Shown here: positions 4,701-40,494 of the stretch, one piece after another
Position numbering within the stretch: position 1 is the first letter of the stretch
Layout of the letters: each line of letters opens with the position of its first letter
Origin: a virus
Lineage: Duplodnaviria; Caudoviricetes
Length of the DNA: 64,000 nucleotides
IMG/VR virus record: IMGVR_UViG_3300037249_001405
Span: 146,317 to 210,316 of that record
Strand: one strand, 5' to 3'
Made by a program: the position numbers and the translations under genes
Notes under the pieces: generated by a model
Told to the model about the DNA's origin: nothing
Database searches by the model: none
The model's input: the letters and a program-made list of their open reading frames with translations, nothing else

Positions 4701-4720
4701 TCTCATCAGTCATTAAGATA

Positions 4721-4936
4721 AAACCTCACGTAATCGGTTGAAAGTCCTATATGGATACCCCGGTTCGAACCCGATGAAAACTTGCACGTAACCCCAGGCG
4801 TGTATTGTAAGTAGTTCCGAGTCCCTGAAAAAAGGAGGGCTGCGTCGTGTGAAAAGGACAGTCAGTGAGAAACTCTCACTGGTGCGGCGTGGCTAGAGAT
4901 AGTTGGTAAATTCGGGCTGATCTATGTGAGTTTTTT
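4721..4936 (+). ncRNA. Structured non-coding RNA (~215 nt), possibly raiA-motif-like
   Basis: Closing stem CTCACGTA-ATCGGTT / GGCTGAT-C-TATGTGAG then T-tract; internal hairpins including a T-loop arm CGG-TTCGAAC-CCG (4761-4773) and CAGTGAG/CTCACTG; GC-rich; no ORF. Confidence 0.65.
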
Positions 4937-6851: not shown

Positions 6852-8390
6852 TTAATTGTTTTTCTCCATTCCCTCTTTATCCTTCCAATTAATGGCAGGA
6901 TAATATCTTTCTATTTCATTTACTGTATTACCAAAGATCACATCTTCTATCTCGAGTGTATCTTTGTATGCCATAGGTGACTCATCGATGGTCTTTTTTG
7001 TTACTGATGTAGTCACAATACCCTCCATCTCTTTCTCGAATGAAGACATGGAGAACTTAAGAATTTCATTAATCTCGTCATCTGAGAGATTACCAAAATC
7101 CTTTTCATACTTAGCCAATATGGTTAAGTTCTCATCGGAGAAGTCCAAATCAGATTCGTACTCCTCCTTTAATTTGAGGTATTCTTGGAGTTGTTCTGCC
7201 AACTCCAACCTCCTGTCGGCTTCCTTTCTGGACATGATACGTCCGGCACCATGTGGCGCCGAATTACCCCATTCAGGATTACCTAGACCTTCAGCTATTA
7301 CAACACCATCCTTCATTGAGAACGGGATAATAACTATTTCGCCCTGTCTTGCTCTGATAGAAGACTTCCTCAATGTTCTATCCTCAAGATCAACGAAATT
7401 ATGTGTAGTAAATATAGTATCAACAACGCGGACACTATACTTACTTAAAATATCCGTTATGATCTTTTGAACAGTTATGTGATTGTACCTTGCATAAAGC
7501 TGTGCAAAGCACATATCCTGGAGATAACCTTTCATATTATCTCCCTTCAGATAACCATTCATGAATCCTTCTTCAAGCTTCTCGAACTCTGCCGAGAGAT
7601 ACTTGTTTAATTCATCCTTAAAGAACTTCATGTCCTTTCCTTCGGCCTTATATTTAGCCTTGAAAGAATCAGTAAGTTCCTTTTCTTTCTCTTTCCTTTC
7701 TTTCTTAGAAAGAGGGTTATTTGAAATGTTCTTCCAGTAAGTAGCTACAGCAAGACCAAATCTTCTTGATCCAAAGTGAAGGAAGAAAGCAGCTTTCTTC
7801 TTATCCTTTGTCAAATCATACTCCAGAAAGTGGTTTCCGCCACCTACTGTTCCGAGTGATTTCCAAAAGACACCTGGATCAAAGTTATTAATACGTTTAA
7901 GAAACGCATTAATCCAGTCTTCCGATACACGTACAGGAAGATCACCTAACATTTCAGGCCAAAGTTGCCTGTATTTGTTAAATTCCTTTGTTATGAATTT
8001 ACAAAATTCATCAGTTTTCACCTTTGAATTTTCATGAAGGTGAAATCCCATAGGTACCTGTTGAGATACCTTATGTTCAAACTCGATAAGCTTGTCTTCA
8101 GAGACAGGTTTATCGAGAATCATACCAGATACAGTACAACCTATATCTACTCCGATGTGGAGTGGGTTAATATAGTTGCCAATAGTTGCAGAAAGGCCAC
8201 AAGGACCTGCTGCACCTACGTGAGCATCTGCCATAAGATAAACCGATTGGCCCTCAAAGGCTTTCGAGTTTATGATGTCGTCAACCTGTTCCAGCACACC
8301 TGGGTCATAGGTCCTTATATACGCTTTACAAGTAGCGTATTTTCCCTTTTTTACGAGAGGGAGGGGACCATCGTAATATAAATTTGCCAT
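6852..8390 (-). CDS. rtcB: RtcB-family RNA 3'-phosphate/5'-OH ligase
   Basis: DAHVG, GVDIGC, GTVGGGNHF, HFGSR, THN and SAPHGAGR motifs, DESPMAYK. Confidence 0.93.
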   Translation of the reverse strand: MANLYYDGPLPLVKKGKYATCKAYIRTYDPGVLEQVDDIINSKAFEGQSVYLMADAHVGAAGPCGLSATIGNYINPLHIGVDIGCTVSGMILDKPVSEDKLIEFEHKVSQQVPMGFHLHENSKVKTDEFCKFITKEFNKYRQLWPEMLGDLPVRVSEDWINAFLKRINNFDPGVFWKSLGTVGGGNHFLEYDLTKDKKKAAFFLHFGSRRFGLAVATYWKNISNNPLSKKERKEKEKELTDSFKAKYKAEGKDMKFFKDELNKYLSAEFEKLEEGFMNGYLKGDNMKGYLQDMCFAQLYARYNHITVQKIITDILSKYSVRVVDTIFTTHNFVDLEDRTLRKSSIRARQGEIVIIPFSMKDGVVIAEGLGNPEWGNSAPHGAGRIMSRKEADRRLELAEQLQEYLKLKEEYESDLDFSDENLTILAKYEKDFGNLSDDEINEILKFSMSSFEKEMEGIVTTSVTKKTIDESPMAYKDTLEIEDVIFGNTVNEIERYYPAINWKDKEGMEKNN

Positions 8391-16029: not shown

Positions 16030-16212
16030 CTACTCTTTTGTTGGGGTAGTAGTTTTCTTAGCTCGGCTGTAGAGATCATTTACGTGAGCTTGCGCACGCT
16101 CTCTGATAGCTTTGCTAATTTCTTCCTCACTTGGTGAAGAAGGATGTCCAATTGCACTTACTTTAGGTTTAGGTGTAATTGGAGTAGTTCTTTTCATTAA
16201 ATATTTTTCCAT
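16030..16212 (-). CDS. Small hypothetical protein
   Basis: 60-aa ORF with own promoter motif AAAAACCTAATAAATGAA (16251-16268) and a terminator. Confidence 0.6.
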   Translation of the reverse strand: MEKYLMKRTTPITPKPKVSAIGHPSSPSEEEISKAIRERAQAHVNDLYSRAKKTTTPTKE

Positions 16213-16281
16213 TTTAATAATTTTTTATTTATTATTAATAAAGATTTTAATTCATTTATTAGGTTTTTAAGGGAGCAAAAA

Positions 16282-16394
16282 AAATATTACCAATAACCAC
16301 TTAAGCTACCGACGCTTTTCAGGGCATCAGGTCCGAGTTGAACGGACTACTCTCGTTTTTCACGCGAGCGCTTCACCGATTATTGGTAATATTT
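16282..16394 (-). ncRNA. Circularly permuted tRNA-Phe(GAA)-like RNA inside a 17-bp closing stem
   Basis: Minus strand: GGTG-AAGC-G-CTCGC-GTGAAAA-ACGAG-AGTA-GTCCG-TTCAACT-CGGAC-CTGATGC-[CCTGAAAA]-GCGTCGG-TA-GCTT-AAGT; all four tRNA stems pair. Confidence 0.8.
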
Positions 16395-16600
16395 CTCTCA
16401 CGGAGGCATCGATACCTCATCAAATACGTAGCATAAGCTAGTTATGATCTCTTGCGTGAAATTTTCTCATTTTTGTTTCGGATATTATTTGATTTATCCA
16501 GGCAGTATCAGAGAACAATCACTCTGCCTTTAATTTTTTTTTTTGATTTTTGCAAACCCGCGGTTCATCACCGCGGGTTAATCAAAATGATACCCACTCA

Positions 16601-16945
16601 CTACTCCAGGCGCATCTTTACCCAGAGGCATTCTGCCTCCTTGGGCAGCTCTGTAGTGCCATTAGGCAATCTAACGGGAGTCGGAGGAACGAACTGGTAT
16701 ACCCAGAACTCGTCCCCCCTTTGGGGTCGGAACTGACGGCGTGCCGTATCACACGGCACGCCTGCTCTTGCTGCGGTGTCGGGGTGGCCGACATAACTGT
16801 CGACCTCATCGTCCTCACCAAAAGGACGGTGATCTCCAGGCTTAACCTCAAGAGGTTTAAAAACTGGAATCTGATCAGCCCCTACCAGCTCCTTCAAAGG
16901 GAGCATATTGAGGCTGATCGAATTTACTATTACGATCTTTGACAT
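16601..16945 (-). CDS. acrIII-1: AcrIII-1-like (DUF1874 / STIV B116 / YddF family) cyclic-oligoadenylate ring nuclease
   Basis: NSISLNML, SYVGHPDTA (catalytic His motif), GDEFWVYQ, RLPNGTTELP; 114 aa. Confidence 0.75.
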   Translation of the reverse strand: MSKIVIVNSISLNMLPLKELVGADQIPVFKPLEVKPGDHRPFGEDDEVDSYVGHPDTAARAGVPCDTARRQFRPQRGDEFWVYQFVPPTPVRLPNGTTELPKEAECLWVKMRLE

Positions 16946-38203: not shown

Positions 38204-38668
38204 ATGGAAGTTATATTCCTGGTAGGCTTGCCTGGATCAGGTAAGTCCACAGTTGCAAGTATTGACCCCACTTACAAGGTGGTGTCAATGGACCGTATTC
38301 GTCAGGATATGGGCATCATCGGCTCTGATGGCAAAAAAGGCATCGGAAACAATGAGCAAGAAGCCGTTGTAAAGGCTAAAGAAAATGAAACCATTGCCGA
38401 TTGGGCTAAAGCCGGTTATGATTTCATAATTGATGATACTAATTTAAAATCCGGTAAAAGGATGATGCAAATTGATATCATTAAAAAAGCTAACCAAAAT
38501 TACAAGATTAAGTATATTTTGGTTAAGACTCCGGTGGAGATTTGTATATCTCGCCGTCCTGAAATTCCCCAGGATATTATGCATTCATTTAATGATGCAA
38601 GTAACTGGGTAATTTACAAAGAGGAGCTTCAACAGATTGATGCTCTTGAGGTAATAAGCAATAACTAA
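38204..38668 (+). CDS. P-loop polynucleotide kinase-like protein (AAA_33)
   Basis: VGLPGSGKST, SMDRIR, IIDDTN, CISR. Confidence 0.85.
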   Translation: MEVIFLVGLPGSGKSTVASIDPTYKVVSMDRIRQDMGIIGSDGKKGIGNNEQEAVVKAKENETIADWAKAGYDFIIDDTNLKSGKRMMQIDIIKKANQNYKIKYILVKTPVEICISRRPEIPQDIMHSFNDASNWVIYKEELQQIDALEVISNN

Positions 38669-40190: not shown

Positions 40191-40259
40191 TAGTGGCTCA
40201 TTGAGGATTCGAACCTCTTTCGGTATTATTTCCCGACGCTGCGCCTCGCCTTAGAGCCA
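40191..40259 (-). ncRNA. Degenerate tRNA-like element (pseudo-tRNA) at the 3' end of an ORF-less transcript
   Basis: TGGCTC/GAGCCA acceptor-like stem, GAGG-TTCGAAT-CCTC T-arm, TCGG/CCGA anticodon-like stem lacking U33, minimal D-arm. Confidence 0.6.
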
Positions 40260-40494
40260 TGTATATAAACCCCCGCCAGATAATAAAATCTTTGAAAGGG
40301 ATTATAATTAAATAAACCCACCAACAACACTTATATTGGTGTTATTAGTGGGTGTGCTTCAGTTATTTATTTTTTTTTTTAATTGTTCATAAATAAGGGT
40401 TTTAAGGAATAAGAGGAAATAAAAAAAAACAAACTTAACTAGCTTTTTTGTTCTAATTAAGTTTGTTTTTCTCAATGCGTTAGTGTGGGTTCAG

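Follow-up and report, generated by a model that had tools for sequence, protein, structure and literature searches.

The window analysed in this work, comprising the final 64 kb of a linear 210-kb virus record that is approximately 56% complete, carries on its minus strand a locus for a non-coding RNA of approximately 251 nt (16278..16528) organized in three domains, as supported by a six-allele alignment, a fold z-score of -7.6 and contigs from RNA libraries. Directly upstream lies an accessory gene (16601..16945, minus strand) whose product, by predicted structure, is an AcrIII-1 (DUF1874)-like ring nuclease (structure match to DUF1874 with TM-scores of 0.60/0.69; Foldseek top match 6SCF AcrIII-1, probability 0.96, E-value 5e-3); a family search of this product at the sequence level gave no match. 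An upstream 877-aa protein yielded a low-confidence model (pLDDT 51) and no family match. On the downstream side, a 60-aa ORF (16030..16212, minus strand) follows the RNA slot in every relative examined (27 homologues, with synteny), and an RtcB RNA ligase gene (6852..8390, minus strand; Pfam PF01139, E-value 3e-44) is located approximately 8 kb downstream, being placed immediately after the 60-aa gene in the relative L170. The window also encodes a PNK-like kinase (AAA_33; 38204-38668, plus strand) and a P-loop protein weakly similar to ATP-synthase/Rho-like proteins (22725-23741, minus strand).

Source phage and its tRNA genes

The record corresponds to a rumen jumbo phage, whose DNA was found in gut metagenome runs from cattle, sheep and goat. 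Its host likely belongs to Bacteroidota, as suggested by the presence of an SD-like motif in just 7 of the 137 long ORFs, by the A found at position -3 in 101 of them, and by its GroEL, whose best matches are those of Bacteroides phages (39%).

Between 19 and 21 normal tRNA genes were found in the record, including two canonical tRNA-Phe(GAA) genes (L217:11504-11737; G000 95503-95736), the first of which has G37 instead of A37, and the large ORFs contain 1230 UUU and 743 UUC phenylalanine codons. Profiles for EndA (PF01974, which matched archaea only among the controls), TROVE, DUF2828 and the CCA-adding enzyme found nothing in the 56%-complete record. Various other structured elements were observed, namely a tRNA-Leu(UAA) gene whose interrupting group I intron (RF00028, 62.5 bits) contains an HNH endonuclease ORF (L217:3193-4033; G000 87192-88032); a tRNA-like RNA with expanded anticodon arm and variable region (L217:4405-4546; G000 88404-88545); a tRNA-like pseudogene or mimic (window 40195-40288, minus strand), which ARAGORN calls only when its threshold is lowered; a tract of approximately 1 kb without ORFs, with higher GC and strong folding (window 29308-30303); and a structured non-coding RNA (window 4720-4934, plus strand) in which a T-loop-like hairpin occurs together with the motifs CUGAAAA and GUGAAAA.

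Structure of the RNA

The original prediction described a circularly permuted tRNA-Phe-like RNA opened in the D-loop, an element that constitutes only the 3' domain of the RNA, whose 5' end lies at 16528. The 5' head (16480..16528, minus strand, as are all elements that follow) is formed by hairpin P1 (16528-16501), a single base and hairpin P2 (16499-16480), and the P1 and P2 loops may establish a UGAUU/AAUCA kissing interaction. An A-rich linker and a middle three-way junction come next (16396..16479), with a closing helix (16461-16455 with 16402-16396) and inner hairpins; across alleles, helices 3-6 of this domain display 100% pairing, the closing helix shows one-sided changes, and an inner loop differs in length (4, 7 or 17 nt). 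The 3' domain is delimited by a 17-bp clamp helix, whose 5' strand (16378..16394) pairs with 16298-16282 and whose 3' strand continues into a tract of eight U (16277..16298, with the U-tract at 16284-16277), an end resembling that of intrinsic terminators, at which transcription would terminate.

Enclosed by the clamp, the tRNA-like body begins with the 3' side of the D-loop (G18 G19 U20 G21) and the 3' strand of the D-stem (16370..16377), both invariant in the six alleles, and continues with the anticodon arm, displaying a G32-U33-G34A35A36 loop (16352..16368), and the T arm (16331..16347), in which the 5-bp stem is invariant and loop positions 55, 57, 59 and 60 vary. An acceptor-like helix (16309..16330; 16330-16324 with 16315-16309) is closed by a C-CUGAAAA cap (16323-16316), and the body ends with U8, A9, the 5' strand of the D-stem and the 5' side of the D-loop, AAGT (16299..16308). 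Every element named in the original prediction was found at its claimed minus-strand position, including the clamp, the D, anticodon and T arms and the 8-nt linker, and the predicted 7/7 acceptor pairing with two G-U pairs (G3.U70 and G6.U67) was borne out for the window, with the qualification that this acceptor is strain-specific.

The tRNA-like region folds with a z-score of -7.5, and none of 200 shuffles was equally stable. As had been anticipated, standard scanners miss the element in its native order, since neither ARAGORN nor Rfam calls it as encoded; once re-permuted into a 72-mer joined at the D-loop, it is called by ARAGORN as tRNA-Phe(GAA) at the default threshold, a call that none of 5000 dinucleotide-shuffled versions of the core received (2 at -ps90). 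The capped T-arm structure was unique in the record according to a descriptor search, and a covariance-model search of the phage record found no second copy. Regarding the anticodon arm, ViennaRNA favours for the window allele a shifted register with a GAAAA pentaloop, and computed energies prefer a non-tRNA register in 5 of the 6 alleles; the shifted register is broken in the L177 lineage and has less support from covariation than the tRNA register. Energy models of the cap mostly return an 8-nt loop.

Several additional interactions were considered and discarded: base-pairing between the anticodon loop and the UUUCACG located upstream (L182 alters UUUCACG to suit its nested partner), anticodon/T-loop kissing (broken in L177), a tmRNA-like stop-codon hairpin (lost in L182), a hammerhead core in the middle domain (GAAA is absent after stem II), and a T-box trigger (a free NCCA is absent).

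Variation and conservation among alleles

Six distinct alleles of the 251-nt unit (window, L023, L025, L172, L177 and L182), all from close relatives, were reached in related gut phages via the neighbouring proteins. The head is 98-100% identical among them; with respect to the window allele, identity is 96-100% for head plus middle domain and 88-96% for the tRNA-like domain, while the downstream 60-aa gene reaches 78-89% and the end of the upstream gene 86-89%. Thus, with 88-100% identity against 78-89%, conservation is higher in the RNA than in the adjoining genes.

In the tRNA-type structure, 97.8% of the alignment cells pair and four pairs have changed on both sides in the six alleles; the same level of covariation was attained by 3-4 of 500 shuffles, and the kinship of the sequences inflates such counts. 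The 17 bp of the clamp are 100% paired in all six alleles, with one compensatory and three one-sided changes, and the L177 lineage shows double compensation at two pairs of the anticodon stem; the compensations stem from one lineage in an alignment of six close alleles. The original prediction had proposed a search for covarying homologues in related phages, and at this scale they were found, with the clamp kept and anticodon-stem pairs compensated.

Invariant features in the six alleles are G18G19, the D stem, the T stem, G32-U33-G34A35A36 and the YUGAAAA cap, the latter unchanged although its stem varies. Other positions characteristic of tRNA drift: position 37 is U and position 55 is C in L177; U8 is replaced by C in L172; the 5' side of the D-loop reads AAGU, AGAU, AAAU, AGCA or A, being reduced to a single base in L182; and the distal acceptor stem is altered in 4 of the 6 alleles, by a bulge in L023, L025 and L177 and by a G1.A72 mismatch in L182. 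G32, C73 and A15-A48 are further non-canonical tRNA features. When the alleles were re-joined, ARAGORN called those of the window, L023 and L182, and failed to call those of L025, L172 and L177 (3/6).

A second, minimal copy was found in L172 (L172:2360-2432), following a 177-aa ORF. It has the same clamp and a GAA anticodon-like arm, whose stem is wholly different yet paired around the GUGAA loop, and is devoid of T arm and acceptor. The fixed loop and stems, as opposed to the drifting tRNA bases, indicate that selection keeps the shape and the GAA loop rather than the features required for charging.

Genomic slot, distant relatives and expression

The content of the slot varies among relatives. 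The AcrIII-1-like gene is absent from L023, L025 and L177, and its L172 homologue, 45% identical, occupies the equivalent position. In L023, L025 and L177, the head is directly preceded by a conserved promoter-like motif, and an additional gene sits between this motif and the head in the window and L172. Four distant relatives (L170, L171, L173 and L174) retain the same head and the same 60-aa gene family and carry another domain in the terminator clamp, their RNAs being composed of the two-hairpin head, the A-rich linker and an alternative conserved domain (L170:7721-7865, L171:7865-8000, L173:2199-2330, L174:559-695). This alternative domain had no match in Rfam or IMG/VR; by eye, it is faintly similar to SRP helix 8. 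In L176, a minihelix consisting of acceptor stem and T arm, without D and anticodon arms, is found upstream of the 60-aa homologue (L176:2112-2165). Taken together, we infer that the RNA slot is an accessory hotspot, probably devoted to anti-defence.

The neighbourhood of the four distant relatives also includes a 122-132-aa 'NLTPH' ORF (phrog_21731/30542), immediately followed by a conserved structured RNA (L170:7587-7650, L171:7646-7850, L173:1980-2180, L174:340-540) in which a stem around a GUGAAAA motif covaries, and preceded by a pseudoknot-like conserved leader (L170:7085-7200, L171:7136-7240, L173:1470-1570).

Searches for more distant homologues gave the following results. With the tRNA-like domain as query, blastn against 50,697 phages retrieved only a tandem tRNA pair; pattern searches of IMG/VR and metagenomes retrieved ordinary tRNA-Phe genes, YrlA-type RNAs, lambdoid sequences and the same close alleles; and a covariance model found only tRNA arrays in 151 genomes of the order of a Bacteroidaceae MAG and 12 other records. 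The head pattern had approximately 28 matches in GTDB, close to a rough chance estimate, with the second hairpin recognisable in none, and a search of IMG/VR with the neighbouring proteins found no close relatives.

Three studies provided RNA-library contigs that cover 16314-16551 and leave the flanking ORFs uncovered. One of them reads through the cap to 16314, and two others stop 1 and 4 bases beyond 16328, beside the cap; these ends hint only weakly at cleavage, if at all, the acceptor sequence of those strains diverging at this point. No D-loop joints were seen among these contigs, which, being of low depth, derived from related strains and possibly affected by DNA carry-over, constitute weak evidence of transcription. 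The RNA is probably expressed in the phage.

Discussion

The RNA described here recalls several known permuted or tRNA-like RNAs. It shares with the permuted tRNA genes of algae and Thermofilum (type I junction 20/21; Soma 2014, PMC3978253) the 3'-half-first order, the junction in the D-loop and a short intervening sequence that closes the acceptor. However, those genes have a BHB, are processed by a splicing endonuclease and yield a canonical product, whereas the phage RNA has no BHB, the 56%-complete record shows no endonuclease, and the tRNA bases drift; its junction, 17/18 and in a bacterial virus, is a continuous, 100% paired 17-bp helix. Regarding the YrlA Y RNA (RF02553; PMC4201824), which is generally not aminoacylated and is carried by phages, common traits include the permuted tRNA-like module, the T arm, the loop-capped acceptor and D-arm elements. 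In contrast, YrlA is opened at the anticodon arm, leading to the Ro-binding stem, while the ends of the phage RNA enter at the D-loop instead of replacing the anticodon arm, the GAA arm is intact, and two additional 5' domains are present; further, Ro60/Rsr (PF05731) was absent from the incomplete record and from the neighbours in the relatives, although distant Ro-like folds could escape this search. YrlA-type RNAs with GAAA-capped acceptors were also observed in unrelated, pattern-selected IMG/VR phages (L012:6930-7070, L016:2430-2570, L017:300-450, L020:9650-9800).

Two-piece tmRNA likewise has a permuted tRNA-like domain within a bigger RNA, and the G3.U70 of the window and a 10-codon ORF in the 5' part would fit it; it differs in that the phage RNA has a D stem and an anticodon arm, shows G3.U70 in the window allele only, and has C73 and no CCA. 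The changes in this short ORF among alleles are exclusively non-synonymous, and ARAGORN made no tmRNA call. The phage RNA is not a permuted tmRNA, nor does it qualify as an algal or archaeal permuted tRNA or as a YrlA RNA, given that it lacks features defining each of them. In the searchable and incomplete literature, no phage RNA with the layout of a sealed tRNA mimic opened in the D-loop was found, nor any phage permuted tRNA or tRNA-mimic decoy. Phage tRNA-derived RNAs have been proposed to offset tRNA-targeting immunity, as for PARIS and the T5 tRNA-Lys (PMC11464382; van den Berg 2023, PMC10264068), and non-standard anticodon-loop bases are shared with them; those tRNAs replace the lost tRNA in translation, whereas an unchargeable phage RNA could act by competition only.

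Of the two options in the original prediction, the precursor that is cut, ligated and reopened is not supported. A true permuted tRNA gene, in which the D-loop ends would be cut and ligated by RtcB, and RNase P and a 3' nuclease would remove the cap to release tRNA-Phe, is very unlikely. The window allele does have a 7-bp acceptor and, re-joined, an ARAGORN call, RtcB is encoded, two RNA contigs end beside the cap, D-loop junctions occur in type I genes of C. merolae (PMC3978253), and a one-step variant can be conceived, with an RNase P cut and CCA addition yielding a two-piece tRNA, following the M. smegmatis YrlA, whose 7-bp capped acceptor is cut by RNase P (PMC4201824). The missing CCA is not diagnostic, because the normal tRNA genes of the phage do not encode it either. 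Nevertheless, the 56%-complete record contains no EndA and the junction no BHB, half of the alleles fail in ARAGORN, acceptor bulges, G1.A72, C8, C55, U37, G32, C73, A15-A48 and D-loop shortening have accumulated, two normal tRNA-Phe genes are already present, and the RNA contigs show no joint, one of them spanning the cap. A functionless, decaying remnant of two tandem tRNA genes within a terminator hairpin is highly improbable. Tandem tRNA genes separated by a short spacer are nonetheless a plausible source of the element, given that a tRNA-Phe followed by an 8-nt spacer and the next tRNA exists in the huge phage LR756501 (L168:555-700) and scores against our model, and D-loop-like sequence flanks the break on both sides; absence of function is largely refuted by conservation above that of the adjacent coding genes, by the compensatory changes and by the compensated arm of the minimal copy.

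The remaining alternatives grant the RNA a function. The main rival reading is a Y-RNA-like scaffold, in which the head would bind a protein of phage or host origin while the tRNA-like domain served as a swappable docking or stability module, in the manner of YrlA-Ro60-PNPase; it is possible, albeit rather unlikely. As in YrlA (PMC4201824), a loop caps the acceptor between the T and D arms; conservation is highest in the head, for which a scaffold accounts better than a decoy and which distant relatives retain with another 3' domain; and a tRNA-Ser/Leu-like RNA of YrlA topology, below the RF02553 cut-off, exists in the tRNA cluster of the phage (L217:11164-11286; G000 95163-95285). Conversely, TROVE/Ro60 and DUF2828 genes are absent from the partially complete record, the GNCGAAN0-1G motif is absent from the alignment, RF02553 is unmatched at the locus, and a scaffold leaves the GAA arm of the minimal L172 copy unexplained. 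It is quite unlikely that the RNA is a sponge for enzymes handling tRNA-Phe (MiaA/MiaB, PheRS) or for ribosomes, which would tune host translation with no nuclease being blocked. Most alleles have A36-A37-A38, the MiaA motif, in each of the two loops, recognition by PheRS depends mainly on GAA as identity element, and the sealed acceptor would make the RNA a dead-end ligand; L177 has U37 in its first loop, however, and a block of PheRS would harm the translation of the phage itself, considering its phenylalanine codon load.

We consider the RNA very likely to be an unprocessed, sealed and unchargeable tRNA-Phe mimic. This part of the second option of the original prediction is supported by the drifting tRNA bases and the sealed acceptor; the decoy role that it also put forward can be inferred as the likeliest single function, namely counter-defence, with a probability falling slightly short of one half. 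According to this proposal, the transcript of approximately 251 nt would present a tRNA body entered via the D-loop, kept folded by the 17-bp clamp, which would also serve as terminator hairpin through its U-tract. As the acceptor end is sealed by a loop, neither aminoacylation nor CCA-tailing would be possible without cleavage, and the exposed parts would be the tRNA elbow (G18G19 with the T loop) and the GAA anticodon loop, to which the cap may add another. The decoy would then occupy a host factor able to recognise the anticodon arm of tRNA-Phe, for instance a tRNA-targeting toxin or an anticodon nuclease, sparing the host tRNA-Phe as well as the two real tRNA-Phe of the phage; speculatively, G32 might turn the RNA into a poorer substrate and a better inhibitor.

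A decoy is favoured by the constancy of the GUGAA loop, whose stem has undergone compensation or, in the minimal L172 copy, replacement; by the accessory slot next to an AcrIII-1-like anti-CRISPR gene, which in relatives contains other structured RNAs or a tRNA minihelix; and by the RtcB, PNK-like kinase and two normal tRNA-Phe genes that the phage encodes. To our knowledge, no Phe-specific defence nuclease has been described for the likely host, which counts against it. Among studied nucleases, a HEPN RNase is competitively inhibited by anticodon stem-loops, whereas for LbuCas13a the ASL-Phe(GAA) is uncut and a poor competitor, which also argues against a decoy (10.64898/2025.12.03.690598), and tRNA-Phe(GAA) is among the minor cleavage targets of an antiphage Schlafen (PMC13056530). 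Moreover, the head and middle domain being the most conserved parts suggests a protein partner, for which a simple decoy would be insufficient.

The claim of two anticodon-like loops was sustained in part. The cap is invariant despite changes in its stem and may be a second anticodon mimic, this hairpin resembling a tRNA-Phe anticodon arm in L172 and L182; equally, by analogy with YrlA-type phage RNAs, it may be a GAAA tetraloop closed by a U-A pair, and the minimal L172 copy retains the first arm only. In addition, CUGAAAA and GUGAAAA may represent a protein-binding or GNRA-like motif, since further structured RNAs from this group of phages contain them too.

Tentatively, these RNAs could represent a class of phage anti-defence RNAs, consisting of sealed, D-loop-opened mimics with a terminator clamp, a shared head and swappable cargo, which would act as competitive inhibitors of tRNA-cleaving nucleases. 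With similar reserve, members of this class might display one or two anticodon loops, and their cargo might be swapped between related phages like anti-CRISPR genes. The RNA is small and has natural variants (full, minimal and with alternative cargo), and even as a scaffold it would represent a tRNA-mimic topology that escapes both Rfam and ARAGORN. Antiphage defence repeatedly makes use of tRNA cleavage, and the RNA-based phage response that we found in the literature consists of replacement tRNAs; if the decoy reading is true, a non-chargeable RNA would constitute a different kind of counter-defence.
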